This document shows, in pieces, positions 14,081 through 63,345 of a stretch of DNA of 64,000 nucleotides. The DNA is from an uncultured Bacilli bacterium. GTDB lineage: Bacteria; Bacillota_I; Bacilli_A; RFN20; CAG-826. The position numbers and the translations under genes are program-made. Within the stretch, counting starts at the first letter, position 1; the number at the start of each line of letters is the position of its first letter. The DNA lies in NCBI GenBank assembly GCA_944376605.1, contig CALWDE010000012.1, forward strand, positions 4,360 to 68,359, written 5' to 3'. Below the pieces are notes generated by a model. It saw nothing but the letters and a program-made list of their open reading frames with translations. It was not told the DNA's origin and did no database searches.

Positions 14081-14703
14081 ATGATCTCAAGCATCATTTA
14101 ATAAAAGAGTTAAAAGAAGAAGCGATCAAACCGAAAAAAGAGAAACTTCTTCTCCATTCTTGCTGCGGCCCTTGTTCTTGCTTTCCCTTTCTTGTTCTTG
14201 GTGCTTCTTTTGACCTTTATGTAAGTTATTCTAACTCGAATATCTATCCTTTAGCAGAATGGGAAAAACGTTTAAAAACCCTGCAAAAAGCAGTTAAACT
14301 TTTTGCTTCTACTTATGGAATTACGATTACGCTTCTGCCAGCAAATTATTCTCATGACACATATATGGCTGATTTAAAAGAGTTTGCTCTTGAAAAAGAA
14401 GGCGGCAAAAGATGTCAGCTTTGTTATAAAAAAAGAATGGAAGAAGCACGAGAGATTGCTAAAGAGCATCATATCCCTTATTGGTGCACCACTTTAACCT
14501 CTTCTCGCCAAAAAGATTCTCTTCTGATTAACCAAGTTGCCGAAGAATTAGACCAAAAAGATCCTGGCGGACCGCGTTTTCTCCATAGTGACTGGAAAAA
14601 AGCAGGAGGCGCGGAAGAGGGAGCAAGAATTGCCCGTCATCTGAAACTATATCGGCAAAATTATTGTGGCTGCGGATATAGCTTAAGAAGCAAAGGAAAA
14701 TAA
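14077..14703 (+). CDS. queH: epoxyqueuosine reductase QueH (DUF208)
   Basis: [11 protein letters not shown] motif and later CQLCY / CGCGY cysteine clusters. Overlaps queA stop by 4 nt. Confidence 0.8.
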
Positions 14704-30181: not shown

Positions 30182-30198
30182 TTTTTGAAAACAAGAGA

Positions 30199-30226
30199 AG
30201 CGCCCATCATGGGCGTTTTTCTTTTT
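30199..30226 (+). terminator. rho-independent terminator of the r-protein superoperon
   Basis: CGCCCA-tca-TGGGCG + TTTTTCTTTTT. Confidence 0.8.
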
Positions 30227-30234
30227 CTTTAAGT

Positions 30235-30252
30235 GACTTTTGCAGGGATTTT
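30235..30252 (-). repeat. copy 1 (inverted) of 18-nt intergenic motif AAAAWCCCTGCAAAAGTC
   Basis: rc reads AAAATCCCTGCAAAAGTC, 17/18 identical to copy at 43266-43283. Confidence 0.6.
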
Positions 30253-30326: not shown

Positions 30327-31847
30327 ATGAAAGAATACTTCAATAAAATCATCCATTCTCCCTCAAAACATTTGCTCTTTCTTTGTCTTTTTTCTCTTCT
30401 CTTATCCGCTTTATTTGTCACATTAAATGCCTATGCGGTTTCTCCTTTGTATAACCAGGCGAATTTGCTCTCCTATGATTCTCCCTACTTCACTTTAATG
30501 GGGAATAAGATGTTAGAAGAAGGAGCAATTCCTTATGTGGATTTTTATGATATTAAAGGGCCTTATTTATTTTATTTAGAAGAGTTTTTCTGTCTCATTC
30601 ATCCCTTTTATGGCGCTTATATAGGTCAGATCTTTTTTAGCGCGCTTAGTATTTTCTTTCTTATTTTGGCACTCGATAAATTAGAGATATCTTTTAAGAA
30701 GAAGCTTGTTTTATTTAGTGTTTACATGATCTTCGCTTTTGCTTTTATGGAAGGAAATGTCGCGGAAGATTTATTTTTATTTATCCCTAGCTTAAGTTTT
30801 TATCTCTTTTTGCTCATACGTGAGAAACCTTCTTACCCAAGATTTCTTCTTTTTGGTTTTGTAGAAGGTGCTTTGACAGGCTTTCTTCTTTTTGTGAAGA
30901 TGAATCTTCTTGTCTTCCCGGGTTTACTTTTATGCATGCTTCTTTATTACTCTTTGAAGGAGAGAAGCTTAGGGAAGTGTTTTTCTTTTCTCACTTTAGC
31001 GCTTATTGGCTTTTTACTTTTTGTTTTACCTCCTATTGTCTTTTATGCCTCTCTTGGGGAGCTTGACGCTTTAATGGAGTGGAATTTTATCCGGGAGTTT
31101 GCCTATTTAGGGACACATAGCTGGGAGATAGAAAGAATTTTTGTTTATATTATTTCTCTTGCTCTTTTCCTTTTCTTCGTCCTCTTTTTCTTTTTTAAAA
31201 GAAAGAATTTTCCAAAAGAGGATATTGGTATTGCTCTTTTTTGTTTAAGCGTCGAGACACTTCTAGCGCTTCTTTCTTTCGTTTCGATGCGCCACTTAAG
31301 AATTGCCTTACCTTTATTTATCGCTTTGAGCGTTTTCCCTCTTTCTCTATTAAAGGAGGAAAAGAAAGGAGTCCGTATCTCACTAAACGTGTCCGCGCTA
31401 TTTGCTTATCCTTTTCTTGTGATTTGCTGTATTGGTTTTCTTTCTTACACCTATGTTACAGTGACACGCGCAGGAGACTGGGTAAATGACGCTTTAGAAG
31501 GCATTTCTTTAGCAATCTCTGAGGAAGAGAGAGAAGAAGGAAGCGTTTTAGCAATCGATATGCCGTGCGGAGTCTATTTTGAGCTCGATGTTTTGCCGGA
31601 ATTTGTTTATCCTGGTTATCACTCGATTCACGCGGTGGAATATGTGCCTGAAATGATGGATTTAGTGACTGCCTACATAAAAGAAGAAGCAACTTGGGTA
31701 TTGGTGAATGACGCTCCATATGAGCATCCTGAAGTCACTCCTATCTATAAGCAAGCAGAGTTTCAAGAGGCTTTAGAAGAAGCAAATTTTGTTTTAAGAG
31801 AAGACTTAACCTATTACGGGTTATGTCTAGTTTACGAAAAGGTGTAA
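30327..31847 (+). CDS. polytopic membrane protein with C-terminal soluble domain, function unknown (possibly a glycosyltransferase-like/ArnT-type membrane enzyme)
   Basis: 506 aa, about 12 TM helices, acidic C-terminal domain. No recognisable motif. Confidence 0.45.
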   Translation: MKEYFNKIIHSPSKHLLFLCLFSLLLSALFVTLNAYAVSPLYNQANLLSYDSPYFTLMGNKMLEEGAIPYVDFYDIKGPYLFYLEEFFCLIHPFYGAYIGQIFFSALSIFFLILALDKLEISFKKKLVLFSVYMIFAFAFMEGNVAEDLFLFIPSLSFYLFLLIREKPSYPRFLLFGFVEGALTGFLLFVKMNLLVFPGLLLCMLLYYSLKERSLGKCFSFLTLALIGFLLFVLPPIVFYASLGELDALMEWNFIREFAYLGTHSWEIERIFVYIISLALFLFFVLFFFFKRKNFPKEDIGIALFCLSVETLLALLSFVSMRHLRIALPLFIALSVFPLSLLKEEKKGVRISLNVSALFAYPFLVICCIGFLSYTYVTVTRAGDWVNDALEGISLAISEEEREEGSVLAIDMPCGVYFELDVLPEFVYPGYHSIHAVEYVPEMMDLVTAYIKEEATWVLVNDAPYEHPEVTPIYKQAEFQEALEEANFVLREDLTYYGLCLVYEKV

Positions 31848-34045: not shown

Positions 34046-34531
34046 ATGCCGATACGTCAAGATGCGAAGGAGAAAATCCTAGCTATCTGTGAATCCCATA
34101 AGGGAGAGCCATCTCCTTTAATGGTTGTGCTTGAAGAAATTCAAAGAGAGTTTGGTTATATTCCCTTTGATGTTCAAGAAATGGTTGCGAATAAACTTAA
34201 TGTAAGCGTGAGTGATGTTTATGGAGTGGTTACCTTTTATAACTTCTTCTCTTTAAATCCCAAAGGGAAGTATGTAATTGGTGTGTGTCTTGGCACCGCA
34301 TGTTACGTAAAAAATAGTCAGGCTGTTCTTGACAAGTTTGAAGAAGTGCTTGGCATTAAATCGGGTGAAACGAGCGAAGACGGTTTATTTACGATTGAGG
34401 CTCTTCGCTGCATCGGTGCTTGCGCTTTGGCACCTGCTGTTTCCATCAACGGAAAAGTTTATCCCATGGTTGCTCCTTCTAAGGTGCCATCCATTATTGA
34501 TGAATACCGTAAACTTGAGGAGGTAGCCTAA
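34046..34531 (+). CDS. hydC: [FeFe]-hydrogenase NuoE-like [2Fe-2S] subunit (HydC/HndA-type)
   Basis: Thioredoxin-like [2Fe-2S] cysteines (CLGTAC ... CIGACALAP). First gene of 3-gene operon. Confidence 0.8.
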   Translation: MPIRQDAKEKILAICESHKGEPSPLMVVLEEIQREFGYIPFDVQEMVANKLNVSVSDVYGVVTFYNFFSLNPKGKYVIGVCLGTACYVKNSQAVLDKFEEVLGIKSGETSEDGLFTIEALRCIGACALAPAVSINGKVYPMVAPSKVPSIIDEYRKLEEVA

Positions 34532-36408
34532 TGATTTCTGAGATTCGTAACGTAAAAGAATTAGACGAGGCCATTGATACTTGTACAAAAGAGTTTGAAG
34601 ACAAGATTAGTGGAGCGCACGGAAAAAGAGCGGTTCTTGTTTGTGGTGGAACAGGCTGCTTATCCAACGATTCTGATGCCATTTTGCAGGAATTTAAGCG
34701 CTTAGTAGAGGAAAAAGGTTTAGCAAATTCTATTACCGTTAATCATGTTGGTTGCTTTGGCTTTTGCTCCCAAGGTCCTTTTGTCAAAATTTATCCAGAA
34801 GATACCTTATACTGCAAAGTAAAAGTAAAAGATGTTATCGATATTGTGGAAGAAGATCTCGTTGGTGGAAATATCGTTGAACGCCTTCTTTATGTTGATC
34901 CTGTAACACATGAACGCGTGCAAAGACAAGACGATATTAACTTCTATAAGAGACAAAAGAGAATTTCTCTGCACGGCTGTTCGCTTGTTAATCCTGACTT
35001 TTTAGAGGAAGCACTTGGTTATGATGGCTTTAAAGCGTTAAAGAAAGTTCTTCTTACCATGAAGCCACAAGAAGTAATTGATGAAGTGCTCGCTTCTGGG
35101 CTTAGGGGTAGAGGAGGAGCTGGCTTCCCTACTGGCAGAAAGTGGCAATTTGCCGCGAATCAGCAAAGCGATACGAAATATATTGTTTGTAATGGTGATG
35201 AAGGCGATCCAGGCGCGTTTATGGACCGTTCTATTTTGGAAGGAAATCCCTTTGAAGTTATTGAAGGGATGATGATTGCTGGTTATGCCTTTGGCGCGCA
35301 TGAAGGCTATTTCTATGTAAGAGCGGAGTATCCTGTCGCAGTAGAACGTTTAAAAACTGCTATCAAGGATATGGAGAAGGTTGGCTTATTAGGTGACCAT
35401 ATTTTGGGAACTGATTTCTCTTTCCGCGCTTATATTCGCGAAGGCGCTGGCGCTTTCGTGTGCGGAGAAGAAACAGCCTTATTAAACAGTATTGAAGGGA
35501 AGCGCGGAATGCCAAGACCTCGTCCTCCTTTCCCTGCTATCAAAGGGCTTTGGGGAAAGCCAACCTGCGTGAATAACGTGGAGACTTTAGCCCAAGTTCC
35601 ATACATTATTCGAGTTGGGGCGAAAGAGTACGCCAAAGTGGGCACAGAAGGCAGCAAAGGCACAAAGGTGTTTGCTTTAGGCGGAAAGGTGAATAACGTC
35701 GGTTTAGTAGAAGTACCAATGGGTACCACTTTAAGAGAGTTAATCTTCGACATTGGGGGAGGTATTCCGGGCGGAAAGAAATTTAAAGCGATTCAAACGG
35801 GCGGACCTTCTGGAGGCTGCTTAACGGAAGAAGATTTAGATACTCCTATCGATTATGACACTCTCGTTGCCAAAGGCTCCATGATGGGTTCTGGTGGCGC
35901 GATTGTTATGGACGAAGATAACTGTATGGTGGACGTGGCGCGCTTCTATATGGACTTTATTTGTTCGGAGAGCTGCGGAAAATGTACGCCTTGCCGCATT
36001 GGCACAAAGCGTTTATACGAAATGCTTAGCAAAATTGTGGAAGGGAAGGGAACAAAAGAGACTTTAAAAGAAATGAAGAGTCTTGCCGCAGTGATTCATC
36101 AAGGTTCTTTATGTGCTTTAGGACAAACAGCAGCAAATCCTATTCTTTCCACGATGGAAAAATTCCCCGAAGAATATTTAGCGCACGTAGAAAGAAAAGA
36201 ATGTCCTGCTCACGTTTGTAAAAGACTTATTCGGATTGTTATTAATCCTGAATTATGTAAGAAGTGCTCTTTATGTGCGAGAAATTGTCCTGTTTCTGCT
36301 ATCACTGGTGTACCAGGAAAAGAGCCTTATCATATTGATCAAAATAAGTGTATTAAATGCGGCGCCTGTCTTGCCTCTTGCCGCTTTAAAGCGATTCATA
36401 AGGAGTAA
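34531..36408 (+). CDS. hydB: [FeFe]-hydrogenase NuoF-like NADH/FMN subunit (HydB/HndC-type) with N-terminal [2Fe-2S] and C-terminal 2x[4Fe-4S] ferredoxin domains
   Basis: GRGGAGFPTG FMN/NAD site. SESCGKCTPCR [4Fe-4S]. Terminal CKKCSLCARNCP / CIKCGACLASC. Confidence 0.85.
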   Translation: MISEIRNVKELDEAIDTCTKEFEDKISGAHGKRAVLVCGGTGCLSNDSDAILQEFKRLVEEKGLANSITVNHVGCFGFCSQGPFVKIYPEDTLYCKVKVKDVIDIVEEDLVGGNIVERLLYVDPVTHERVQRQDDINFYKRQKRISLHGCSLVNPDFLEEALGYDGFKALKKVLLTMKPQEVIDEVLASGLRGRGGAGFPTGRKWQFAANQQSDTKYIVCNGDEGDPGAFMDRSILEGNPFEVIEGMMIAGYAFGAHEGYFYVRAEYPVAVERLKTAIKDMEKVGLLGDHILGTDFSFRAYIREGAGAFVCGEETALLNSIEGKRGMPRPRPPFPAIKGLWGKPTCVNNVETLAQVPYIIRVGAKEYAKVGTEGSKGTKVFALGGKVNNVGLVEVPMGTTLRELIFDIGGGIPGGKKFKAIQTGGPSGGCLTEEDLDTPIDYDTLVAKGSMMGSGGAIVMDEDNCMVDVARFYMDFICSESCGKCTPCRIGTKRLYEMLSKIVEGKGTKETLKEMKSLAAVIHQGSLCALGQTAANPILSTMEKFPEEYLAHVERKECPAHVCKRLIRIVINPELCKKCSLCARNCPVSAITGVPGKEPYHIDQNKCIKCGACLASCRFKAIHKE

Positions 36409-36413
36409 GCAAT

Positions 36414-38207
36414 ATGGCGTTAATAGAAATTAAAATTGAAGGTAGAAATTACCAAGTTGATGACTCTTTAACAGTGTTAGAGGCTGCTAGAAGCTGCGGT
36501 TACCGTATTCCTACTTTATGTTATTGGAACCATGGCCATAACTCTTTAGCCTCTTGCAGAGTTTGCCTTGTTGAAATTAAAAATCCCCGCGGATCGCGCT
36601 TATTTGCCTCTTGTGTGTATCCGGTAAAAGAGGTTCCTGCTAGCAAAGGATTTGAGATTTTAATCTCTTCTCCTATGGCGGTTGAAGCAAGAAAGACTGC
36701 GGTAGAACTTCTTTTATCGAACCATTCCAAAGACTGTCAAACATGCGCGAAAAACGGGAAGTGCGAATTACTTGATGTTGCTAACTTAACGGGCGCAGAA
36801 ACGGGGAAGTTTATAGGGGAAAAGACTCCTACTACCTATGATGAACTTGCTCCCGGACTTATTCGCGATACGAGTAAATGCATTTTATGTGGCCGCTGCA
36901 TTGAACGCTGCAAAGAGGCGACAGGGATTGGTATTTTAGGATTTGAAAATCGCGGATTTAAAACCATTGTCGCGCCAATTGCCAATCGTTCTTTCAGCAA
37001 AGTGCCATGTCTCCAGTGCGGGCAATGCATCAACGTTTGTCCTACAGGCGCTTTATCAGAGAAGCGAGAAATTGACCGTGTTGATGAAGCCTTCAAGGAA
37101 GGCAAATATGTAGTTTGCCAAGTTGCTCCTGCAGTTCGCGCGGCAATTAGTGAAGAATTTGGCCATAAAATTGGTGAAGAAAATGGCGAAGGCAAGATGG
37201 TTGCAGCCTTACACCGTTTAGGCTTTAAGAAAGTGTTTGATGTGAACTTTGGCGCGGATGTGACCATTATGGAAGAAAGTCACGAATTACTAGAAAGAAT
37301 CAGTAAGCATACTGGCCCTTTACCACAAATTACATCTTGCTCTCCAGGCTGGGTGAATTATTTAGAGTATTTTTATCCCGAACTAATCCCACATCTATCT
37401 ACCTGCAAATCTCCTCATGAGATGCAAGGCGCTTTAACGAAGTCTTATTTTGCTGAAAAAGAGGGCTTAGATCCGAAAGATATTTATGTTGTTTCGATTA
37501 TGCCTTGCACAGCGAAGAAGTTTGAAAAAGAAAGAAAAGAGAACGCGGCGCTTGGCGTGCCTGACGTTGACGCGGTATTAACAACAAGAGAGCTTGCTTT
37601 ACTCATTAAGCGTTCTGGTATCTTATATGATGAGCTAAAAGAAGAAACTTTTGATCCTTTAATGGGTGAAAGTTCTGGTGCTGGCGCGATATTTGGTGTA
37701 ACTGGCGGAGTAATGGAAGCTGCTTTACGTACTGCTTATCACACTTTAACAGGAAAAGAGTATGCAAAAGTTGATTTTACGGAAGTACGCGGCTTTGAAG
37801 GAATTAAAGAAGCGGAAATCGATATAGAAGGAAGTAAAGTCAAAGTAGCGGTTGCTTCCGGTGCGAAAAACGCCAAACCTCTTTTAGAAGAGATTAAAGC
37901 AGGGAAGAGCCCATACGCCTTTATTGAGATTATGGGGTGCCCTGGAGGATGCTTAAATGGTGGCGGTCAGCCCTTTGTCAAACCATCCTTATTACCAAAG
38001 GAAGATAAAGACATCCTTGATACTTATTTAAGTAAGAGAGCGAATATTCTTTATTCCATTGATGAGAGAAAGAGCGTTCGTCAAAGCCATAACAATCCTG
38101 AAATTAAAGCGTTATATGAATCTTATTTAGAAAAGCCAGGAAGTGAGAAGGCGGAGCATCTCTTACATACCTCTTATATCGCTACGCGTGAGCGTTATCC
38201 TCATTAA
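36414..38207 (+). CDS. hydA: [FeFe]-hydrogenase catalytic subunit HydA (M3-type: 2Fe-2S + His-ligated 4Fe-4S + 2x4Fe-4S + H-cluster)
   Basis: H-cluster motifs TSCSPGW (L1), MPCTAKKFE (L2), EIMGCPGGCLNGGGQP (L3). CILCGRCIERC and CLQCGQCINVCP ferredoxin motifs. Confidence 0.9.
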   Translation: MALIEIKIEGRNYQVDDSLTVLEAARSCGYRIPTLCYWNHGHNSLASCRVCLVEIKNPRGSRLFASCVYPVKEVPASKGFEILISSPMAVEARKTAVELLLSNHSKDCQTCAKNGKCELLDVANLTGAETGKFIGEKTPTTYDELAPGLIRDTSKCILCGRCIERCKEATGIGILGFENRGFKTIVAPIANRSFSKVPCLQCGQCINVCPTGALSEKREIDRVDEAFKEGKYVVCQVAPAVRAAISEEFGHKIGEENGEGKMVAALHRLGFKKVFDVNFGADVTIMEESHELLERISKHTGPLPQITSCSPGWVNYLEYFYPELIPHLSTCKSPHEMQGALTKSYFAEKEGLDPKDIYVVSIMPCTAKKFEKERKENAALGVPDVDAVLTTRELALLIKRSGILYDELKEETFDPLMGESSGAGAIFGVTGGVMEAALRTAYHTLTGKEYAKVDFTEVRGFEGIKEAEIDIEGSKVKVAVASGAKNAKPLLEEIKAGKSPYAFIEIMGCPGGCLNGGGQPFVKPSLLPKEDKDILDTYLSKRANILYSIDERKSVRQSHNNPEIKALYESYLEKPGSEKAEHLLHTSYIATRERYPH

Positions 38208-42681: not shown

Positions 42682-43266
42682 ATGCAGTTTTCTTTTTCTG
42701 ATGAAGATCTCATTCTTTTTATGCGTCTTGGGAAAGAGGAGTACAGAGAGCTACTTCTATTACGTTACTGGCAAAAGATGTCTTGCTTATGTCATTTAGC
42801 TTGTCCCTTTCTTTCTTATTCTTTTGACTTAGCAGAGTTCTCCTCTTCTTACTTAAAAGTATTTTATATGGCGAGTAATAATTACCGCCTCGAAGGAACT
42901 CTATTTGAAACTTATTTTGTGAATGCTTTAAGAAATGAGATCTATATCTTTTTGCATAAAGAAAAAGTGAGAAGAGAAGTCGCTTCTCTTCGCCTAGAAG
43001 ACACTTGTTCTTCAAGCACTTCTCTCACTTTTGGGGATGTGGTAGCTTCTCCTGCTTTAGGGCCAAAAGAAGAAATCATTCATCTAGATTCTGCAAGGAT
43101 TTTAGCAGAAAGAAGTCTTCTTCTTTCGCGCGAGGAAAAACGTCTTATTTCCTTAAGAAGAGAAGGAAAACCATATGAGGAATGCGCGAAAATTTTAGGC
43201 CTAACAAGGAAACAAGTGCGTGTGCGCATGAACCGTATCCGAAAATGTTTACTTATCGTAGAATGA
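42682..43266 (+). CDS. alternative sigma-70-family factor (ECF/SigH-like, regions 2 and 4 only)
   Basis: Region 2-like DEDLILFMRLGKEEYRELL...TYFVNALRNEI. Region 4 HTH LLSREEKRLISLRREGKPYEECAKILGLTRKQVRVRMNRIRKCL. RBS AAGGAGG. Confidence 0.65.
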   Translation: MQFSFSDEDLILFMRLGKEEYRELLLLRYWQKMSCLCHLACPFLSYSFDLAEFSSSYLKVFYMASNNYRLEGTLFETYFVNALRNEIYIFLHKEKVRREVASLRLEDTCSSSTSLTFGDVVASPALGPKEEIIHLDSARILAERSLLLSREEKRLISLRREGKPYEECAKILGLTRKQVRVRMNRIRKCLLIVE

Positions 43267-43283
43267 AAAACCCTGCAAAAGTC
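43266..43283 (+). repeat. copy 2 of 18-nt motif AAAAACCCTGCAAAAGTC (overlaps sigma gene stop)
   Basis: Direct reading. Followed by nested hairpins TTTCTC-gaa-GAGAAA. Confidence 0.6.
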
Positions 43284-43380
43284 TTTTCTCTTTACTTTTT
43301 GTTATTTCTCGAAGAGAAAACCTCTTGAATTCCACCTCCCCCTATTCTTAATATGAACCAATCTTTTGGGAGGCTTTTTA

Positions 43381-44172
43381 ATGGCTAAATCGACAAAAAT
43401 GAATAGTCGAAAGAAGTGGACGCTTGGCGGCATTGGATTGTTCCTTGGTGTTGCCCTTGTTACCACTGCTTCCGCCACCTACATCATTGGAATTAATCAA
43501 ACAAATCAAAATCCAAACGTTGGCGTGGATGTTGATACTGTTACCAATAATTCTGTTACCTTCTCTATGAAAGTACATGAAGGCAGCCGCTTACGTGTTG
43601 GTGAAACAGAAAACACTAGCGGAGATGTCGTTGTTGTAGAAGATGCTAGTGATACCGCCATGCAAGTTACTTTTGACGTAACAATCAAGTATGGCGAGCA
43701 ATATCTTGCTGATGGCGAAACAATGACCATCAATTACTCTTTTGATTATTGGAGTGAGGATACTAGCTCTGCGAATAAACCTTTACTTGTAGCGGATGGC
43801 CTTTTAAGCATTAGAGGCGAAATTGATAAGACTGTTTGCTCTACTGAAGAGGAAGGCGTCGCAGATCGTTGGACTTATGTGGATGCACCAAATGCTACTG
43901 CAGTACCTACTGCGACTGGTAGCGGCTGGACTGTTAGCACAGATGGTAATGTAACTACTGCTACTGCAACACTTACTCTCACCTTTAAGTGGGGTTCTTT
44001 CTTTGATAATCAAAGCCCTGCCACTTTCTATAACGCGAAATATGATCCTTCTACCATTACAGCAGAAGATGCTGGCAAAATCGAAGCAGAGTTAGATGCA
44101 ATGCACGCAGCTCTTGATAAGAAGAATATTACGCTTACTGCTGAGATTACGAAGGCAGGCGCAGGAGCCTAA
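43381..44172 (+). CDS. TasA/camelysin-like secreted protein 1 with SipW-cognate-type signal peptide
   Basis: ATG 43381 after GGGAGG. N-terminus MAKSTKMNSRKKWTLGGIGLFLGVALVTTASATYIIGINQT resembles TasA signal (…GGGTWAAFND). 264 aa, size of TasA. Confidence 0.55.
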   Translation: MAKSTKMNSRKKWTLGGIGLFLGVALVTTASATYIIGINQTNQNPNVGVDVDTVTNNSVTFSMKVHEGSRLRVGETENTSGDVVVVEDASDTAMQVTFDVTIKYGEQYLADGETMTINYSFDYWSEDTSSANKPLLVADGLLSIRGEIDKTVCSTEEEGVADRWTYVDAPNATAVPTATGSGWTVSTDGNVTTATATLTLTFKWGSFFDNQSPATFYNAKYDPSTITAEDAGKIEAELDAMHAALDKKNITLTAEITKAGAGA

Positions 44173-44250
44173 TTTCCCTTTCTTACTCTTCTAGCCCATG
44201 GTGACATGGGCTCTCTTTCGTTAAGGTAATTTTATAAAGAAGGAATATTT

Positions 44251-44973
44251 ATGAAAAAAACGAGAAAAACAAATAACAAAGCAATGACAGTTGGTATTGC
44301 TTTAGCAGCAGTTGCCATCACTGGTGTGGCTTTCTCTACATGGATAATTGTGAATGATCAAAGCTCTACTGTTACTGGCAATATCACTCTCAATGTTGCT
44401 GATGTAGAGGATCAAAGCATTATTATCAAGAACGCGCAAGTAGATGATGGTGCTATCAGATTTGACTGTAAGAAGGATGATTCAAGCGGCCCTATCCGTT
44501 TCTCGGATGATGACGGAAGTACTGGAGAAGATCTTAACTTCTCTATGCACTTTGATATTGAAAATGTTTGGGATGGATCTGCTTTTGAAAGTTACTATAG
44601 CGGTTTCAAATTAACCTGGACTATCACGGATACTTCTAGCGCTTTTAGCACTGCTATTTCTAGTGGTTATATTGTTGCGCCTTGGGCAAGTGAGAGTGAG
44701 CTTACTTTTGGAAAGCCAACGAATCTAACAGAAGACACAAACACCGTTAAGGTTCAAAGCTTTACTGCGACGCATACTGCTGGTAGTGATAATGATGTTC
44801 ATGTTGCAATTTCTGCTTCTTTCGCTTGGGGAACTTATTTTGGAACTAGTAACCCTGGTGAATATGCAGGAAGCGACGCTTCTACTATTAGCAGTTATTT
44901 AAGCGGTTTAAATAGTTTGAAGAGCCTTGATAGTGTTACTATCGCTTTCACGGTGGCGCCAGTTCGTGCATAG
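44251..44973 (+). CDS. TasA/camelysin-like secreted protein 2 (paralog)
   Basis: Signal MKKTRKTNNKAMTVGIALAAVAITGVAFSTWIIVNDQSS. FSTWIIVND ~ GGTWAAFND of B. subtilis TasA. Confidence 0.6.
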   Translation: MKKTRKTNNKAMTVGIALAAVAITGVAFSTWIIVNDQSSTVTGNITLNVADVEDQSIIIKNAQVDDGAIRFDCKKDDSSGPIRFSDDDGSTGEDLNFSMHFDIENVWDGSAFESYYSGFKLTWTITDTSSAFSTAISSGYIVAPWASESELTFGKPTNLTEDTNTVKVQSFTATHTAGSDNDVHVAISASFAWGTYFGTSNPGEYAGSDASTISSYLSGLNSLKSLDSVTIAFTVAPVRA

Positions 44974-45009
44974 ATAATGATTTATAACTAACTTTTTGTT
45001 CCTATAGCT

Positions 45010-45741
45010 ATGGGTAGAAAATCTCTTGAAACAACCATTATCTTTTCTCTTCTTGGTGTGGCTGTTTTAAGCATTGGATTTTCTACCTTTGCTTATGGAG
45101 ATGCGAATGCAGAAGATGTTTCAGGAAATATCAACTTTGGCAACATTGTTGTAGAAGAAGATAGTAGCCGTTATCTTCTTCCTTTAAAGGATGAGGAAAA
45201 CTTAGTAACAGCAGGATTCTCTCTGGATTTGTTACAAAGCACTTCTATCTCTTCTTACTTTAGTGTTGCGATTCCTGTAACTTTTTCTGCTTCTTATTGG
45301 CGTCTTACGAATCAGCCAAATTTTACGATTGATATAAGCGGCTTTAGCGATGCCGCTCAGCAAAATCTTGCTTTGCTTGTTGGGGTTACTAACGAGAGTG
45401 ATATTTACACAAGTTGTTCCATCAATCTTTCGACCTTCGCTTTTGATCACGAGAGTGTATTTCAAGGTAGCTTAATTGCTGCAGAAGGATTTAACAGCGT
45501 CGAGGAAGGGAAAAATACGTATCATTTTCCTTCTACTATGCAGTTTACTTTAGAGGATAGTACGCACTTTTCTGCCTTAGAAGGAGCGGAAAACATTTAC
45601 CTTAATCTTCATTTTTCCCGGAATGGTTATAGTTCAGGACAGACACAGTCGTTACGGAACTTTGTCTCTTCCTTAATTAATACTGCCAATGGATTTATTT
45701 TAGAACTTAAGATTCATGATGTAACAGGAGAGAGTGCATGA
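45010..45741 (+). CDS. TasA/camelysin-like secreted protein 3 (paralog)
   Basis: Signal ...LGVAVLSIGFSTFAYGDANAED (GFSTFAYGD ~ SipW-cognate consensus GGTFAYFSD). Confidence 0.55.
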   Translation: MGRKSLETTIIFSLLGVAVLSIGFSTFAYGDANAEDVSGNINFGNIVVEEDSSRYLLPLKDEENLVTAGFSLDLLQSTSISSYFSVAIPVTFSASYWRLTNQPNFTIDISGFSDAAQQNLALLVGVTNESDIYTSCSINLSTFAFDHESVFQGSLIAAEGFNSVEEGKNTYHFPSTMQFTLEDSTHFSALEGAENIYLNLHFSRNGYSSGQTQSLRNFVSSLINTANGFILELKIHDVTGESA

Positions 45742-46778
45742 GTGGATTAGAAATTCTCTCTCTTATTGTTACCATTATTTGTCTTGTCTCTTTCTCTTTC
45801 GTCTTCACCATCTTATTCCGTTCTTACTATAAGAATGCGGAAGAGGGGGTAAATAACGGCAAGGAAGACTTACTTCTTTTGCAAGAACTTGTTGAAGAAG
45901 AAGAAAAGAAGAGTTCGAAATGGGCGCAAGTGAAAAATGTAGGAGGAAAGATTATCTCTTACTCCTTGCTTGCCCTAGTAGTGGTCTTCTTTGGTTTCTC
46001 TCTTGCAGCAAGAATTAGTAATACTCCACTTTTATTTGGTGAAACGGGGACTCTTGTCATTTCTTCTCCCTCCATGAGTGAGAAAAACACCGTCAATACG
46101 TATTTATGGACGTATGACTTAAATGATCAGCTTGATACTTATGATCTCATTGGAGTAGAGAGAATCCACTCTCCAGAAGAAATAGAACTTTATGACATTA
46201 TTGCTTTCCGGGCGAATGATGGCAGAACCATTGTTCACCGCGTGATTGATATTAGTAAAATAGATGGGGAATATTTCTTCCGCACGAAAGGAGATGCAAA
46301 CCGTTTAGAAGATGCTGGAGATTTATATGGTGACTATCTTGCCTATCAAGACATCTTAGCCAAATATAACGAGTTCCGTGTTCCTGTAATTGGGGTATTT
46401 GTCATCTTCTTACAATCAGGCGCAGGAATTGCCACAATCTTCTCGCTTATCTACTGCTATCTCATGTATGGATATTTCCGTAAGAGACTAGATAAAGCGA
46501 TTGAAGAGAGAAGCGAGTATTTAGTAAGCACTCTCTCTTTTGTTGCAAAAGATAAAGAGACTCCTGCTTATATTGAAGAAAAAGAAGAAATTCTTTATAA
46601 AGAAGAAAAATATCTCTTCGTTGAAGGAAAGTTCATTGAGAAAAGTGCAGCTTCCGAAGAAGAAATTACCCGCTTTACCGCTTCTAGTGAAGAAGAGGAG
46701 AAAGAAGAAACAGAAAACTTCATCCAAAAACTTCTTCATAAATTTAGAAAGGAGGATGACCAAGATGAAAAAGAATAA
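45738..46778 (+). CDS. sipW: ER/archaeal-type signal peptidase I (SipW-like, S26B) with N-terminal TM anchor, an insertion and ~130-aa E/K-rich C-terminal tail
   Basis: Boxes VISSPSMSE (Ser nucleophile), IVHRVIDI (His), FFRTKGDANRLEDAGD (KGDxN..D). ATGA overlap with preceding gene. Confidence 0.65.
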   Translation: MSGLEILSLIVTIICLVSFSFVFTILFRSYYKNAEEGVNNGKEDLLLLQELVEEEEKKSSKWAQVKNVGGKIISYSLLALVVVFFGFSLAARISNTPLLFGETGTLVISSPSMSEKNTVNTYLWTYDLNDQLDTYDLIGVERIHSPEEIELYDIIAFRANDGRTIVHRVIDISKIDGEYFFRTKGDANRLEDAGDLYGDYLAYQDILAKYNEFRVPVIGVFVIFLQSGAGIATIFSLIYCYLMYGYFRKRLDKAIEERSEYLVSTLSFVAKDKETPAYIEEKEEILYKEEKYLFVEGKFIEKSAASEEEITRFTASSEEEEKEETENFIQKLLHKFRKEDDQDEKE

Positions 46779-49647
46779 CGCTAAATTCCGTTGGACTTTT
46801 ACAGGGATTTTGTTTGCAATTGGTTGTATCTCCTTAGGTTCCGCAGCCTATTTAGTAGAGAATGAAACGAATTTAGGACTCTCTGACGGCTTAGTGCAGG
46901 TCCGCTTTGTAAATGAGAACAGTGCTACTTCGAATGAAATGCTTGTTCCTCCTGGCACCATTGTGAAAGTGAACACTTCTACCGTTCCTGGTTATTCTTA
47001 TGTTTCTTCTAATGAAGGCACAGTGGTAGAAAATAAAGTCATTTTTGGGGACTTTGTTGTACCAGAAGATGTTGATGAAATTGAATGCACCGCATTCGCA
47101 CCAATTGTCGATAGTGATAGTTATGTTTCTTTATCTGAGTATGTTCAGGGAGGTACTCCAGCCCATTTAGCGGTGAATTTCACAGGAGGCACAACAGAAT
47201 TAGAATCCACTTTATTTTCGCCATCTACCGAAGAAAGAAGGGGATTAAACGAGAAGTACGTATTCCTTGATGTAGAAGACAATTTTGTCTTATCAAAACC
47301 TTTGTCTTTTGTGATTGGCGGTGAGCCTTCTACTGATACAAATCAGAGAAATTTAAATCAAGGTGCTGCTCCTGCTACTACAAACGCCTTCCAACATGTT
47401 ACGGAAGCAAATCATTTGATTACAGTTGTTTTGCAGTCTGATTTAACGATTGGTAGTGGTGGCTCTCTTGCTTTAGAGGCTACTACTGGAAGAAAATCTA
47501 CTGGTTTTTCAGGGAACGTAATTAGTGGAAATTACACTGCTTTAGATTTAAATGGACATACAATAACTTTGCAAAACGGCGCTTCTTTACGTCAATTTGG
47601 TCTATTAACAGATTCTTCTTATGATAAATCAGGGCAAATTATTGTTGATAATGGTGCGCATTTATCAGGCGGCTTAGTGGTGGAAGACTTTAATGGTGGC
47701 ACTGTCACGGTTGGCAGCTATTTAGTGAACTCTGCCCCGTTCTTCCTCTTCTCTATGCCCTATTTAGAGGCAACAGTGGATGTGCTCTATGGCGGCAACT
47801 TCGGGGGAGATGTTTCGCTATATGCGCAAGGCACATATGGAAGCACGGAAATTCCGCTTTTTGGTTCTAGTGATTTACATATGGTAGAGATAGAAAATGC
47901 TTCTTCTCATGTGGTTCGTTCGGTAAAAGGACGACATAGAGTCGATAGTACTCAAACAAATTACTCTGTTAATTTCTGGAAGCCGTATTTAGTGGATTAC
48001 AGAGAAGAATTTGCCTTAATTGGCCCTGGCGATTCTACAAGTGAATCCTTCCGTGTGAATCCTATGGTTCTACCACTTTTAATGCGCGCAAATATACCTC
48101 TTTTAGGAGATGTTGATATCAATGCAGAAGTGAGTTTTGCTGAAATGGATTTCCCTATCGCGCCTTGGATGCATATTTCTTTAGAAGATGGTGCGGCCTT
48201 AAATTTTGGAAATAGTTTTGGCTTTTTACCTGGTTCATCGCTTAATGTGGACTCTACATCTAAAATTATTTTCTCTTCCAGAAACAATATTGAAGCAACA
48301 ATCACTGCATCCATTTGGACAAAGACAATGACTTTTAATAGTTTACCCTATCTAAAAGCCTATGACTTTATGCCACCTCAGCCCTATTATTCAATGGCTT
48401 ACTTTTCATCTTTTAATAGTAACTATGCAAATTGGGACTCTGTTGTTGAACCTGCCTTCTTTAATTTTGAAGGTTCAATGGAGCTTGATTCAAGCAGTTT
48501 GCCCTCCAATATGGGTATTGGTGGGTATACCCATATGGGCCAAGCAAGTAGAGAATTTATTGCTTCCCTATCGCCAAATACGTTTAATACAACGCCTATT
48601 GGAATTATGCGCGTAGGCGCTATTGGTGTAACAGAATTAGGAACTTGGATGCTCGACGTCTTTAGTAATACTCCTCCGCATGTGGCGGTGAATGCAATGT
48701 ATAACATAGCGCCACTATCAGTAGATGGTTATATCGTTAAGGACTTAGCTTCTCTTGGAGTAAATGCTAACACTGATTACAATCCAGATGAAAAATGGAC
48801 CTATGATTGTGTGGACTCCTTAGCAAAACGTTATAGCGGAGAAACTCTTACAGGTATTCAATTTTTCCTCGTTGATTCCTCTTATGATCAAAATTTCTCA
48901 AGTCAATGGACCAATAATCCTTCAGGAAGTTGGGTGGATGCAAGCCGTTTATCTGATGGTAATTGGGGTGAATTAAATTTGCCCAACTATCAACGTTCTT
49001 ATAGTTCTGAACTTGGAGTTAATATGATTCCGTTTGTTCATTATGGCGATACTTATTATGCCAGATTTGGTGGAACTTTTGTTCCGATGCTAACTAAATT
49101 GTCTACGGTTTTTCAAACGAGTCGTACTCAGACAAGAACTCATACGCAAACGCGCTCATGGGCTCTTGGACCATGGAAAAATGATGAATATTCAAAGTGG
49201 GTGGCATCTTCAATCGTGTCTAGCAATGGCGTTACAAGCATTTCTAGTTTAAATACAAACACTAGTTCATTAACTATCGAGCCTGTTTTTACAGGTTTAA
49301 ACTGCTATGAAAATCTTAATGTAAAACGCTTTACCCGTATGAGTGACGATAGCGTTGATAGTGATAATGCAAATCCATTTATGAATGCGTCAAACAGCTC
49401 CATGTATTCTCTATCAAATCAGTTGGGTTCGCAGGGAGTTTCTCTTAATATCCCAGACTATACAGGAATAGAAAATTCTTCTATTTCATCAGGGGACTGG
49501 TCCACTGATGGTAATACGAGAACTCGAACACAAACGCGTGCTACAACCCCAGCACAAAGTTCTGGACATGAAAATGGTTACAGTTACTTCCGTTTTGATG
49601 CTACTAGAGCAAGTTGGAGAGTTTTATGGGTAGATGGTACCCGTTAA
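46765..49647 (+). CDS. large (960 aa) secreted surface protein with SipW-cognate-type signal and Thr/Arg/Gln dipeptide repeats
   Basis: ATG 46765, 9 nt after AAAGGAGG. Signal MKKNNAKFRWTFTGILFAIGCISLGSAAYLVENE. TRTQTRTHTQTR and TRTRTQTR repeats near C-terminus. Start overlaps sipW by 14 nt. Confidence 0.6.
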   Translation: MKKNNAKFRWTFTGILFAIGCISLGSAAYLVENETNLGLSDGLVQVRFVNENSATSNEMLVPPGTIVKVNTSTVPGYSYVSSNEGTVVENKVIFGDFVVPEDVDEIECTAFAPIVDSDSYVSLSEYVQGGTPAHLAVNFTGGTTELESTLFSPSTEERRGLNEKYVFLDVEDNFVLSKPLSFVIGGEPSTDTNQRNLNQGAAPATTNAFQHVTEANHLITVVLQSDLTIGSGGSLALEATTGRKSTGFSGNVISGNYTALDLNGHTITLQNGASLRQFGLLTDSSYDKSGQIIVDNGAHLSGGLVVEDFNGGTVTVGSYLVNSAPFFLFSMPYLEATVDVLYGGNFGGDVSLYAQGTYGSTEIPLFGSSDLHMVEIENASSHVVRSVKGRHRVDSTQTNYSVNFWKPYLVDYREEFALIGPGDSTSESFRVNPMVLPLLMRANIPLLGDVDINAEVSFAEMDFPIAPWMHISLEDGAALNFGNSFGFLPGSSLNVDSTSKIIFSSRNNIEATITASIWTKTMTFNSLPYLKAYDFMPPQPYYSMAYFSSFNSNYANWDSVVEPAFFNFEGSMELDSSSLPSNMGIGGYTHMGQASREFIASLSPNTFNTTPIGIMRVGAIGVTELGTWMLDVFSNTPPHVAVNAMYNIAPLSVDGYIVKDLASLGVNANTDYNPDEKWTYDCVDSLAKRYSGETLTGIQFFLVDSSYDQNFSSQWTNNPSGSWVDASRLSDGNWGELNLPNYQRSYSSELGVNMIPFVHYGDTYYARFGGTFVPMLTKLSTVFQTSRTQTRTHTQTRSWALGPWKNDEYSKWVASSIVSSNGVTSISSLNTNTSSLTIEPVFTGLNCYENLNVKRFTRMSDDSVDSDNANPFMNASNSSMYSLSNQLGSQGVSLNIPDYTGIENSSISSGDWSTDGNTRTRTQTRATTPAQSSGHENGYSYFRFDATRASWRVLWVDGTR

Positions 49648-49691
49648 ACATATATTTGTAATTAAGAAGGAGAGATAAGGAGGATTCTTCG

Positions 49692-60141: not shown

Positions 60142-60723
60142 ATGAGAAATAAAACTTTATTACTATTCCCGTCTCTCATCTCACTTGTCTCGTGCGGAGC
60201 TGGTATCAACAGTTCTTCTTTCTTAAGTAGCAGCAGCGATACCAGCTTAAGCGAATCGATTGTAGGAAGATGCTTTCGCACCTCTTACTTTTCTTTTTGG
60301 GAAGAGATGAACACTTATCTCTCTGACATAGAAAACGAGACAAAAGAAACTTTTTCTCCATATATTTCAGATCCAGTTAGGGACGAAATTCCTTCTTTTA
60401 AAGCCCCTCAGTTTGGGGTCACAACTGATGGTGAATACACAAAAACAAAAGAATATTCCTTAGGAGAATATCCTTTAGACCCTGCAGAGGGAATAAGTTC
60501 TATTTCGATTCGTTATCAGCATATAGAGGATGATTTTGAAATTAATGTCATTATTCGAGAAGAATCTTCCTTTTCTAAAATGAGCCCTCTCTATTTCACT
60601 TATTCTGAAGAAAGAGAGGATTTAGCATCTTTAGTTGCACCTTTAGAAGAGAAATGGAGAACAAAGTTAGGAGAAGACTATTCTTTCTCTTGGACCGCTC
60701 TTGTGCCAGCTTATCACTTGTAA
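60142..60723 (+). CDS. lipoprotein, function unknown
   Basis: Lipobox LISLVSCGAG. RBS AGAGGAAAAG. Confidence 0.6.
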   Translation: MRNKTLLLFPSLISLVSCGAGINSSSFLSSSSDTSLSESIVGRCFRTSYFSFWEEMNTYLSDIENETKETFSPYISDPVRDEIPSFKAPQFGVTTDGEYTKTKEYSLGEYPLDPAEGISSISIRYQHIEDDFEINVIIREESSFSKMSPLYFTYSEEREDLASLVAPLEEKWRTKLGEDYSFSWTALVPAYHL

Positions 60724-60737
60724 CTCAATCTTTTAAA

Positions 60738-60780
60738 TATGAATTAATATTCATACTTGATAAATGAAACTCTGTTCATA
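60738..60780. promoter_or_regulatory. ArsR/SmtB-type operator: inverted repeat TATGAAT-taat-ATTCATA, second imperfect repeat AATGAA-n6-TTCATA, overlapping -10 TATAAT
   Basis: Resembles CzrA/SmtB 12-2-12 operators (…ATATGAACAAATATTCA…). Sits directly upstream of the arsR-like gene. Confidence 0.6.
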
Positions 60781-60810
60781 TAATCTAGATAGATATGAAG
60801 GGAGATTCAT

Positions 60811-61104
60811 ATGTCAAATATTCCGTCTGAGAAAATCATTGATGCAATGGAGAACTTGTTAAATATTGCATCAGACTCTACTAGGCTTAAGATTCTTTAT
60901 TCCATCTCGGGGGAGGAGAAGAATGTTTCTGAGATTGTGAAAGAGATAGGAGCCTCCCAGTCATTAGTCTCACATCAGCTTAAAGTTTTAAAGAAGGCAA
61001 AACTTGTTGCAACGCGTAGAGAAGGAAGAAAAATTTATTACCTTTTGGCGGATGAACACGTCGTTCATCTTTTAGATGTCGTGCATGCTCACGTGACGGA
61101 GTAG
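60811..61104 (+). CDS. ArsR/SmtB-family metalloregulator, Cys-free alpha-5-site type (CzrA-like Zn/Co sensor)
   Basis: wHTH RLKILYSISGEEKNVSEIVKEIGASQSLVSHQLKVLKKAKLV. C-terminal DEHVVHLLDVVHAHV resembles CzrA alpha5 D-x-H...H-x-x-H site. No Cys. Confidence 0.75.
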   Translation: MSNIPSEKIIDAMENLLNIASDSTRLKILYSISGEEKNVSEIVKEIGASQSLVSHQLKVLKKAKLVATRREGRKIYYLLADEHVVHLLDVVHAHVTE

Positions 61105-61107
61105 TTT

Positions 61108-63258
61108 ATGGAACATGCAGAGAAAACGTATCGTATTAGTGGCCTTGATTGCGCTTCTTGTGCTTTAAAAGCAGAAAAAGCACTGGAGAATTGCAAGGGT
61201 ATTGATTCATGTCATATCGATTATGCTGGTTCAAAAATTTATGTTACCGGGCTTTTATCCAAAGAAGAATGTGAAGCGGAAATCCGAAAAGTAGAAGAGG
61301 AAGTTCGTCTTTTTGATATGGAGGAAAACGCTGACTGGAAAAAAGAAAGAAGAAAGATGATTGTGGTTGCTTTGCGCGCCTTTATCTCTTTTCTTTTAGC
61401 AATACTTACTCAGTTTTTGTTACCGGTAGATCAATATGGTGTCGCACCATATTTATCACTTATGATTGCTGCTTGGCTTCTTTCTGGCTATGACTTACTT
61501 TACTTTGCAGGGAAGGCAATTTTCAAAGGGAAAGACATTTTCAATGAATCTTTTTTGATGTCTTTTGCTTCGATTGGTGCCTTTTTACTCCCTTTGCTAA
61601 ATCATGATTTTGATTCTTGTTTTGATGCTGTTCTTGTTGTTGTTCTTTATCAAATAGGAGAACTATTTAATGACTACGCGACAAGAAAATCGCATCAGGC
61701 AGTTGTCGATGCCTTATCGCTTAAAAAGGAAGTTGTCCATAGACGAGTAAATGGCATATATGAAGACATTCCTGCTTCGTCAGCAAAAAGAGGAGATTAT
61801 CTTCTTATTAAACTTGGAGAAAGCGTTCCAGTAGATGGCGTTATTAAAAAAGGCAAGGCGGAGATTGACTTATCTTCTTTAACAGGGGAGTTTGCCCCTA
61901 AATTTGTTGAGGCGGGAGATAAAGTCGTCTCTTCCGCAATTGTGAAAACAGGATACTTAGAGATTGAAGCAATAACAGGTTATCAAGATTCTACCTCAAG
62001 TAAACTTGTCGAACTTGTGGAAGGAGCAAGCCGGGAAAAGGGAAAAACCGAAAAACTGATTGACCGATTTGCACGTTATTACACGCCAATTGTGATTGCT
62101 CTTGCGGTAATTCTTGCTGTCATTCCTCCTCTATTTATTAATTACTCTAACGCAGAAGTTTGGGCAAACTGGGCTACTATTGCCTTGTCTCTTCTTGTAA
62201 TTTCATGTCCCTGCGCAATTGTTCTTTCGATTCCTCTTTGTTACTTCTCTGCCGTTGGATCAATGGGGAAAAACGGCATCCTTTTAAAGGGCACAGAATA
62301 TATTGATGTTTTAGCTTCTACTTCTTATTTAGTGAGCGATAAAACAGGCACTTTAACGGAAGGTAGATTTTCTTTAGAAGAGGTTTGTCCAAATGAAATA
62401 AGCAAAAAAGAATTATTAGAACTTATTGCTCTAGCAGAGCATCGTTCGAATCATCCCTTAGCGCAGCCATTTAAGCCCTATTTTGACTCTCTAAAGGAAA
62501 AAGAAATTAATTCTTATGAGGAGATTCCAGGAAAGGGAATTACTCTTTCTTATCAAAATAAGAAGCTTCTTGTGGGCGCTAAAAAGCTGCTTGAAGAAAA
62601 CGGAATTTTGGTTCCATCTGAAGTTGAGGGCACTTTGATTTATGCCTCTTATAATCAAAAATATATTGGTTATGTCACTTTAGTTGACTCTTATAAAGAT
62701 GGTAGCAAGAGCCTCTTCTCTTACTGTAATGAGAAAGGAATCCACACTCTATTACTTACTGGAGACCAAGAGAAAGCTGCTAAAAAAGCACAAAGTGACT
62801 TAGGAATTGATGAAGTTTATTCTCAGCTTTTACCAGAAGAAAAGACAAATATTATTCGCGAAAAAAAGAGTAAGTTATCCAAAAATAAGACGCTTTTGTA
62901 TGTAGGTGACGGGATTAATGACGCGGCAAGTTTAGCTTTGGCAGATTGCGGTGTTGCTATGGGTGCACTTGGTTCTGGACTTGCTATTGATGCCGCAGAT
63001 GTCTTACTGATGAACGACGACCCCTCCTCTATTGCAAAGGGGATATCCATTGCCAAAAAGACAAAATCTTTGGCGTATTTTATCTTAGCTTTCGCTTTAA
63101 TCATAAAATTCATCATTATGATTATTTCTTTTGTTCTTGGCTCTTCTTTCCCCTTATGGGTTGCAGTCTTTGGGGATACAGGATTAACCTTGATAACGAT
63201 TCTCTTATCTTTGATTCCTCTTACTTTTGCCAAAGGGAAGAGAAAGAAATTGAAATAA
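61108..63258 (+). CDS. heavy-metal (Zn/Cd/Co-type) P1B-ATPase
   Basis: HMA domain GLDCASCALKAE, TM CPC (SCPCAIV), DKTGTLT, HP (SNHPLAQ), GDGINDA. ATG 4 nt after the regulator's stop. Confidence 0.85.
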   Translation: MEHAEKTYRISGLDCASCALKAEKALENCKGIDSCHIDYAGSKIYVTGLLSKEECEAEIRKVEEEVRLFDMEENADWKKERRKMIVVALRAFISFLLAILTQFLLPVDQYGVAPYLSLMIAAWLLSGYDLLYFAGKAIFKGKDIFNESFLMSFASIGAFLLPLLNHDFDSCFDAVLVVVLYQIGELFNDYATRKSHQAVVDALSLKKEVVHRRVNGIYEDIPASSAKRGDYLLIKLGESVPVDGVIKKGKAEIDLSSLTGEFAPKFVEAGDKVVSSAIVKTGYLEIEAITGYQDSTSSKLVELVEGASREKGKTEKLIDRFARYYTPIVIALAVILAVIPPLFINYSNAEVWANWATIALSLLVISCPCAIVLSIPLCYFSAVGSMGKNGILLKGTEYIDVLASTSYLVSDKTGTLTEGRFSLEEVCPNEISKKELLELIALAEHRSNHPLAQPFKPYFDSLKEKEINSYEEIPGKGITLSYQNKKLLVGAKKLLEENGILVPSEVEGTLIYASYNQKYIGYVTLVDSYKDGSKSLFSYCNEKGIHTLLLTGDQEKAAKKAQSDLGIDEVYSQLLPEEKTNIIREKKSKLSKNKTLLYVGDGINDAASLALADCGVAMGALGSGLAIDAADVLLMNDDPSSIAKGISIAKKTKSLAYFILAFALIIKFIIMIISFVLGSSFPLWVAVFGDTGLTLITILLSLIPLTFAKGKRKKLK

Positions 63259-63275: not shown

Positions 63276-63345
63276 AACCTTGCATTTCTTGAATTAAAAT
63301 TCAGAAAATTTGAATTTATATAGGTTTTGCAAGGTTTTTAATTTT
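63276..63345 (+). terminator. long-stem terminator / nested palindromes at right edge of inserted island
   Basis: AACCTTGCA (63276-84) pairs with TGCAAGGTT (63328-36). Inner GAATT/AATTC repeat. Followed by TTTTTAATTTT. Confidence 0.45.

Follow-up and report, generated by a model that had tools for sequence, protein, structure and literature searches.

Several kinds of short sequence that recur in bacterial genomes, including the DNA uptake sequences (DUS) of Neisseriaceae, the uptake signal sequences (USS) of Pasteurellaceae, Chi sites and repetitive extragenic palindromic (REP) elements, have each revealed part of the machinery with which cells handle DNA. DUS are 10-12 nt long, and USS consist of a 9-nt core within a ~30-bp motif that is flanked by AT tracts. 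The subject of this report is an 18-nt motif that recurs in a 64,000-nt stretch of an uncultured Bacilli bacterium of the RFN20 lineage (contig CALWDE010000012.1, positions 4,360-68,359; hereafter, the window), and the ~30-bp repeat family to which its copies would belong. The window is metagenome DNA, and a contig from another sample is 99.7 % identical to it.

The motif resembles DUS and USS in several respects. It is non-palindromic, occurs in both orientations and is many-fold over-represented, and its exact core is common to related genera at non-orthologous sites. The motif also has dialects (..GTCCAC.. and ..CTCAAC..; AAAAA and AAAAT). Positions immediately past genes and near terminators are favoured, its in-gene copies lie in several reading frames without insertions or deletions (indels), and its extended form contains phased A/T tracts. 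Furthermore, a 24-nt pattern derived from the family is absent from the viral contigs searched. The motif is long, and it is common to several genera of uncultured, reduced-genome gut Bacilli.

Copies of the motif in the window

The pattern AAAAWCCCTGCAAAAGTC occurs exactly at copies 1 and 3 of Table 1 and with two mismatches at copy 2. These three copies had been listed in a sequence-only reading of the window, and the motif lies where that reading placed it; the list was incomplete, and a degenerate intergenic copy (63322-63339) and two coding near-copies (46794-46811 and 53894-53911) are added to it here. Allowing up to two mismatches, the window contains six matches against 0.02 expected from dinucleotide shuffles, and the count is again six, against 0.25 expected, when three mismatches are allowed. 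The 10-mer core CCCTGCAAAA occurs five times in the window; it is above chance as had been claimed, although its expected number is 0.20 and not the ~0.1 first given.

Three of the copies in the window fall in coding sequence. When the window genes were subjected to 60 synonymous-codon shuffles, a mean of 0.05 coding copies was obtained, and none of the 60 shuffles reached three. The copy inside queH had been put down to coincidence, which is doubtful in light of these counts: the coding copies, that in queH included, are probably not coincidental. The coding near-copy in the gene for the 534-aa membrane protein is matched at 18/18 bases by the orthologue in the relative L156, but the neighbouring coding sequence is likewise highly conserved.

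Copy 1 scores 24.8 bits against the family profile (nhmmer) and is identical in contig L001 of a second sample. It lies 97 nt ahead of the first open reading frame (ORF) of a 15-kb accessory block, and copy 3 lies ~10 nt past the rplQ terminator hairpin. In the degenerate copy, the GCAAGGTTTTT end pairs with AACCTTGCA ~45 nt upstream. The density in the window is about one copy per 16-20 kb, and the copies are oriented 2:2; GC skew along the strand is uniformly positive. The extra 4 kb of the contig to the left of the window contain no copy.

A repeat family of uncultured Bacilli

An exact scan for the 18-mer across one genome per species (596 Gb) matched at least 118 stretches. As ~140 matches are expected by chance in 596 Gb, by our own estimate, single 18-mer matches in unrelated taxa carry no meaning. 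Multiple exact matches were found in Candidatus Onthovivens sp. SUG2468 (at least eight) and in several metagenome-assembled genomes (MAGs) of uncultured Mollicutes/Bacilli (at least two in each). In these multi-match genomes, the 18-mer match runs on for 12 more bases, giving AAAAACCCTGCAAAAGTCCACTATTTTTTT. The family consensus in these ~30 % GC relatives is AAAAACCCTGCAAAA[C/G]TC[A/C]A[C/T]TATTTTTT, and the unit in Ca. Onthovivens and allied MAGs spans ~30 bp, with the layout A5-CCCTGCAAAA-[C/G]TC-[A/C]A-[C/T]TA-T6-7.

A profile built from those copies detected nine further copies in the surrounding 61 kb, mostly of a second dialect (..AAAACTCAACTA..), and the density in Onthovivens loci is ~1 copy per 7 kb. 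The 24-nt degenerate pattern matched 35 metagenome loci, against ~0.1 expected as estimated from the information in the pattern and the size of the collection. The same pattern had no match in 2.9 million viral contigs (IMG/VR), where the 18-mer matched once, in a coding region; a phage origin was rejected on these counts.

The hosts of the family are uncultured Bacilli or 'Mollicutes' of ~30 % GC, all of them metagenome-assembled. The organism of the window has ~40 % GC, and all that it retains of the motif is the first 15-18 bp. In RpoA, it shares 53 % identity with the Onthovivens locus versus 64 % with the relative L159, and by this measure it is only distantly related to the ~30 % GC motif hosts. 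Many genomes carry the motif in multiple copies, which stand at non-orthologous sites and are oriented in either direction. Of the possibilities first raised for the window copies, a small dispersed repeat family is therefore the one supported, and the family is much broader than was noted, extending over many genomes of a group of uncultured Bacilli.

Full-text searches on the sequence strings and on related topics returned no published description of the motif, only an unrelated buffalo primer, and nothing relevant was found in the literature on uptake sequences in Firmicutes, on RF39/RFN20 or on Onthovivens. The ~30-bp motif is apparently undescribed. In practical terms, it is also a lineage marker for binning.

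Internally, the motif is laid out as two half repeats phased by 11 bp (AAAAACCC, TGC, AAAAGTCC), with a T-tract at the end. The consensus has no dyad symmetry. No hairpin is predicted in the motif, both strands being flat, and its minimum free energies (MFE; 0 and -2.1 kcal/mol) are no better than those of shuffled sequences. Around the three listed window copies, Rfam returned sub-threshold noise only and no family matched. A core site for a serine invertase (hix-like) or a tyrosine recombinase was rejected, the right half not being an inverted copy of the left. A DnaA box and a consensus like that of integration host factor (IHF) gave partial, unconvincing matches by eye only. Chi sites and the chromosome-orienting KOPS/SRS sequences are 5-8 nt long and strongly co-oriented with replication or transcription; the motif is ~30 bp long and is oriented 14:16 to genes and 2:2 in the window.

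Two local variants were seen. In L123, L131 and L136 (metagenome loci are designated L throughout), the full motif is preceded, at a distance of 8 nt, by part of the core repeated in tandem (AAAAACCCTGCAAAT). L127 and L147 have GGGTTTTT(GC) ahead of the motif, which pairs with AAAAACCC of the motif to form a hairpin.

Coding copies, placement and proposed mode of action

Copies within genes bear on how the motif arises. In L124, a perfect 30-mer lies in an HI0933-type flavoprotein gene, on the opposite strand, and encodes EKNSGLLQGFL, which aligns residue-for-residue and without insertion with the structures 2i0z and 4cnj (PDB). Similarly, three orthologous genes for energy-coupling factor (ECF) S-components (L007, L040 and L043) carry the motif, which there encodes KKSTFAGFL without insertion relative to 4rfs. 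The motif encodes KNPAKVDYFQ in L029 and L148, and in L138 it forms the start of a lipoprotein signal peptide. Because the coding copies differ in frame and strand, the constraint acts on DNA; from these alignments, the copies appear to have arisen by substitution and not by transposition. Orthologous intergenic copies are also 30/30 identical despite diverged flanks (L123 versus L131 and L136). As a separate observation, a Lys-rich-then-hydrophobic signal-peptide start is supplied by the motif both in L138 and at window position 46771, in the latter from the opposite strand.

On balance, we favour the view that the motif is a lineage-wide recognition signal in duplex DNA, made in place, and not an RNA, a promoter, a terminator or a transposon end. 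The window copies would be members of this family, a short, non-palindromic signal that is active in the form of double-stranded DNA. A lineage-specific, sequence-specific DNA-binding protein would read each base, and the copies may have originated where they stand and been maintained by selection or by a drive from recombination or uptake. As the motif is imposed on coding sequence without insertions, it would imply a hitherto unrecognised sequence-specific DNA-recognition system in never-cultured gut Bacilli.

An unlikely alternative is a selfish miniature repeat, similar to REP elements, to miniature inverted-repeat transposable elements (MITEs) or to Correia elements, that is tolerated in 3′ intergenic DNA only, has no host function and is spread by a trans-acting transposase or by gene conversion. 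The dispersal of the copies, in both orientations and mostly between genes, fits such a repeat. REP elements and bacterial interspersed mosaic elements (BIMEs) of Enterobacteria and Pseudomonas are likewise short extragenic repeats at gene 3′ ends and between operon genes, occur in both orientations about once per 7-8 kb and coexist with terminators. The turnover of positions between relatives, one ~40-nt indel relative to an empty state, differences in gene content exactly at motif sites, and T-rich and A-rich outer flanks that can be read as a weak target duplication also point in this direction. However, REPs are imperfect palindromes with a GTAG head that are mobilised by REP-associated tyrosine transposases (RAYTs), whereas the motif has neither the palindrome nor the hairpin that REP/RAYT and IS200/605 derivatives require, and substitution also creates it inside genes.

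MITEs such as the Neisseria Correia elements and the Rickettsia palindromic elements (RPEs) are similarly dispersed and sometimes overlap gene ends or coding sequence, and the reverse complement of the motif starts with a string like the TAGTGGA of Correia ends, which is probably a coincidence. The motif differs from MITEs in having neither terminal inverted repeats nor a body of ~100-150 bp, and from RPEs, which insert about 30-50 aa, in that its coding copies add no residues. There is no inverted partner end within reach, and no coding indel was found; the ~40-nt indel and the T/A-rich flanks are not diagnostic of a transposon end. When set against homologues of known structure, two independent coding copies contain no insertion, and the motif is identical across diverged orthologous sites. 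No transposase adjoins the copies in the gene tables of some loci, although no systematic transposase search was made. The coding copies and the missing palindrome in particular weaken the case for a selfish repeat.

At two motif sites, relatives carry an extra gene of ~1 kb instead, and the filled sites have no motif copies. L125 and L153 have the order geneA-[motif]-uvrB where L081 and L140 have geneA-geneX-uvrB, and L133 has ppa-[motif]-trmL where L082 has ppa-geneY-trmL. These are two cases at ~70 % identity, and no conclusion is drawn from them.

The placement of the motif was analysed in 73 non-redundant family copies. Between co-directional genes there are 14 forward and 16 reverse copies, seven copies lie between convergent and seven between divergent genes, and the others are in ORFs or at contig edges; several of the in-ORF assignments are start-codon artefacts, and ~85-90 % of true family copies are intergenic. 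Co-directional copies follow the upstream stop codon closely (median, 4 nt) and are farther from the next start (median, 100 nt); 25 of the 30 are closer to the stop than to the start (p = 3e-4). At reverse copies, it is often the complement of CACTATTTTT that supplies the stop codon, as a TAG or TAA within it. Hairpin terminators are found in 57 % of motif-bearing versus 51 % of motif-less intergenic regions, and the usual order is stop codon, motif, terminator and next promoter. The motif is thus concentrated where constraint on the DNA is lowest, after a stop codon and ahead of the terminator or next promoter. In L125 (1150-1200) and L133 (1340-1375), the motif makes up the whole gap from the stop codon to the next ATG (of uvrB and trmL, respectively), with no Shine-Dalgarno sequence there.

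This placement could also be that of a cis-regulatory protein site at gene ends, either a roadblock against readthrough or the operator of a global regulator between transcription units, a function that we regard as improbable. The closeness to stop codons and the copies between convergent genes (L081 and L154) are consistent with it, as are the 11-bp-phased half repeats, which fit tandem protein binding. Furthermore, an A-tract, a ~18-nt core and a T-tract directly after stop codons resemble a bidirectional intrinsic terminator with its hairpin swapped out. The left half of the motif (AAAAACCCTGC) has the typical form of a terminator arm, and it serves as one in L127, in L147 and at window position 63322. 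In contrast to bidirectional terminators, the core is not self-complementary, its MFE is ~0 and ordinary terminators still stand beside it. The retention of these terminators, at the frequencies given above, indicates that the motif does not replace them. At several loci, genes of what appears to be one operon are separated by the motif and nothing else; perfect copies lie in mid-gene, and the genes that flank the window copies form no coherent regulon. A hairpin-less terminator was rejected because normal terminators are equally frequent in motif-bearing intergenic regions. Intrinsic terminators have a G+C-rich hairpin followed by a U-tract, and the motif contains no hairpin.

The window copies had also been considered a possible recognition element of a sigma factor or regulator. 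A promoter for the neighbouring sigma factor or for sigma-A is very unlikely, even though copy 1 directly follows a sigma gene ahead of an operon, the reverse complement holds TTGCAG/TTGACT-like hexamers, and a plausible TTGCAG-16-AATAAT precedes the ORF at 30327 at the copy at 30235. Copies show no preferred orientation to downstream genes (14:16), and some of them lie between convergent genes or in coding DNA. The best-conserved bases would fall in the spacer, the -10-like hexamers are, on inspection of the flanks, AT-rich and at variable distances, and a scan for promoters shows nothing at the motif. A sigma-54 promoter was rejected, the GG-GC spacing being 8 and not 12. The promoter form of the earlier suggestion is not supported by these data; the motif may still be a site for a DNA-binding protein of another kind.

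An RNA element, whether a 3′-untranslated region (UTR) motif, a small RNA or a gene for a small peptide, is most improbable. Forward copies do lie in 3′ UTRs, and a 21-codon ORF, MKNPAKVFSLYFLLFLEEKTS, can be read from copy 1 onwards. However, no structure and no Rfam family were found, half of the copies are antisense to the flanking transcript, and most copies have no ATG in front of them. A small ORF or toxin peptide was rejected on the latter ground, a start codon being absent at most copies.

For the duplex-DNA signal, the single mechanism considered most likely, by analogy and still only tentatively, is an uptake or recombination tag similar to the DUS of Neisseria or the USS of Pasteurellaceae; a site for a nucleoid or chromosome-organising protein is the next most likely. 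An uptake tag would explain the perfect copies within genes, the genus dialects, the absence from the phage contigs searched and the build-up in neutral DNA after stop codons. Among Gram-positive-type lineages, here reduced-genome gut Bacilli such as Ca. Onthovivens, it might then be the first tag for sequence-specific DNA uptake or recombination, read by a dedicated DNA receptor and multiplied in situ through biased uptake and recombination, a possibility that the analogy raises but that is itself doubtful. If so, self-biased transformation would have evolved in monoderms too, and the motif would offer a handle for the genetic manipulation of these lineages. If the motif were instead a protein site at gene ends, it would be a new element of genome organisation.

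Several points weigh against the favoured view and its uptake form. No Gram-positive bacterium is known to take up DNA in a sequence-specific manner, and the host belongs to a Gram-positive-type lineage. The strongly conserved part is much longer (~28 bp) than in DUS and USS, and inverted pairs are rare. The motif does not reach the density of DUS/USS (~1 per 1-1.5 kb, with a large coding share), lying 5-15 times below known uptake sequences, and its intergenic bias is far above that of DUS/USS. In the closest relatives sampled (L156-L160; 20 kb each), which were found via NusG, there are no good intergenic copies, and the hold of the motif in the lineage of the window is weak or patchy. Intergenic motif positions turn over between genomes at ~70 % nucleotide identity, L082 and L133 differ by a ~40-nt indel at a motif site, and there is room for insertion-like events in the origin of intergenic copies. 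Finally, the mode of action is something that we only infer.

The 15-kb block and its surroundings

The gene order around copies 1 and 2 is cysS, mgtC, rlmB, the sigma gene, the 15-kb block, rpmG, secE, nusG, an ArsR/P-type ATPase insert and rplK (Table 1). The accessory operon had been described as bracketed by the motif, which is geometrically true, as same-strand copies flank it. In the duplex-signal reading, these copies would simply occupy free DNA after two stop codons, with no role in insertion of the block.

Table 1. Motif copies and neighbouring features in the 64-kb window.
Feature	Position	Strand	Description
Motif copy 1	43266-43283	+	AAAAACCCTGCAAAAGTC; first A is the last base of the sigma-gene TGA stop
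Motif copy 2	58645-58662	+	AAAATCCCTGCAAAATTA; 16/18 to the pattern; overlaps the lipoprotein TAA stop; followed by a terminator-like hairpin, then rpmG
Motif copy 3	30235-30252	-	AAAATCCCTGCAAAAGTC; between the rplQ terminator and a 506-aa ORF starting at 30327
Degenerate intergenic copy	63322-63339	-	AAAAACCTTGCAAAACCT; between the P-type ATPase gene and rplK
Coding near-copy	46794-46811	-	1 mismatch; strand opposite the gene; encodes TFTGIL of a lipoprotein signal peptide
Coding near-copy	53894-53911	+	2 mismatches; encodes KILAKG in a 534-aa membrane protein gene
Coding near-copy	14274-14291	+	2 mismatches; inside queH
Sigma-70-family gene at the sigH position (cysS-mgtC-rlmB-sigma)	42682-43266	+	
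15-kb accessory block between two same-strand copies	43366-58646	+	Unknown membrane/surface proteins, ABC ATPase, beta-helix protein, lipoprotein
Terminator-like hairpin	58674-58719	+	12 nt past copy 2; -16.3 kcal/mol, z = -2.3; separate from the motif
rplQ intrinsic terminator	30197-30229	+	GCGCCCATCATGGGCG, then T-run; adjoins copy 3

Two same-strand copies at both borders of a block that is absent from relatives would be expected of attachment (att) sites or of a target duplication left by site-specific insertion, as had been proposed. L156 (NusG 76 % and lipoprotein 67 % identical) carries the same 15-kb block, but its lipoprotein/rpmG border, corresponding to the right border in the window, has no motif. 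In L157-L160 (NusG 72 %), the block is absent and the positional sigma orthologue is directly followed by rpmG-secE-nusG; this empty sigma/rpmG junction is motif-free in all four, so that not even the single copy of an att site is present there. No recombinase is encoded in or beside the block, and copies 1 and 2 match each other at only 15/18 positions. The same motif stands at many unrelated sites in other genomes, where the family is not tied to recombinases, and its coding copies arose without insertions. The att explanation is already largely refuted and has hardly any likelihood left. The case counsels caution in taking short repeats at the borders of an island for att sites.

Two small hairpins had been noted after the motif, and both are present. 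That at 43305-43319 is no better than shuffled sequences (z = 0.15), and past copy 2 a single structure is significant, which is the terminator-like hairpin of Table 1 and not that at 58733-58751. The 21-codon ORF mentioned above (43264-43329, + strand), which ends in a stop codon, starts within an ATGA that overlaps the sigma stop; copy 1 encodes it.

The sigma factor at the sigH position is extremely divergent, with 26-27 % identity to its positional orthologues (L157 8897-9526; L159 8770-9387), and a word-indexed search of 5.8 billion proteins found no homologue besides the protein itself. The block splits an otherwise conserved cluster of this sigma gene and rpmG-secE-nusG. Its proteins have almost no Pfam or NCBIfam matches, save for the ATP-binding cassette (ABC) ATPase, the beta-helix protein and a lipoprotein with Listeria-Bacteroides repeats.

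In Firmicutes, ribosomal-protein leaders are usual at the S10/spc/alpha ribosomal operons and the rplK region, yet neither there nor elsewhere in the 64 kb does any Rfam family reach its gathering score. The window contains no tRNA genes. Between nusG and rplK (60142-63258) lie genes for an uncharacterised 193-aa protein, an ArsR regulator and a heavy-metal P-type ATPase, the latter two of which are shared with the relatives L156, L159 and L160 at this position. A three-gene cluster of the HydABC type (34046-38207; NuoE/NuoF-like proteins and an [FeFe]-hydrogenase) indicates an anaerobic, hydrogen-producing metabolism of the host.

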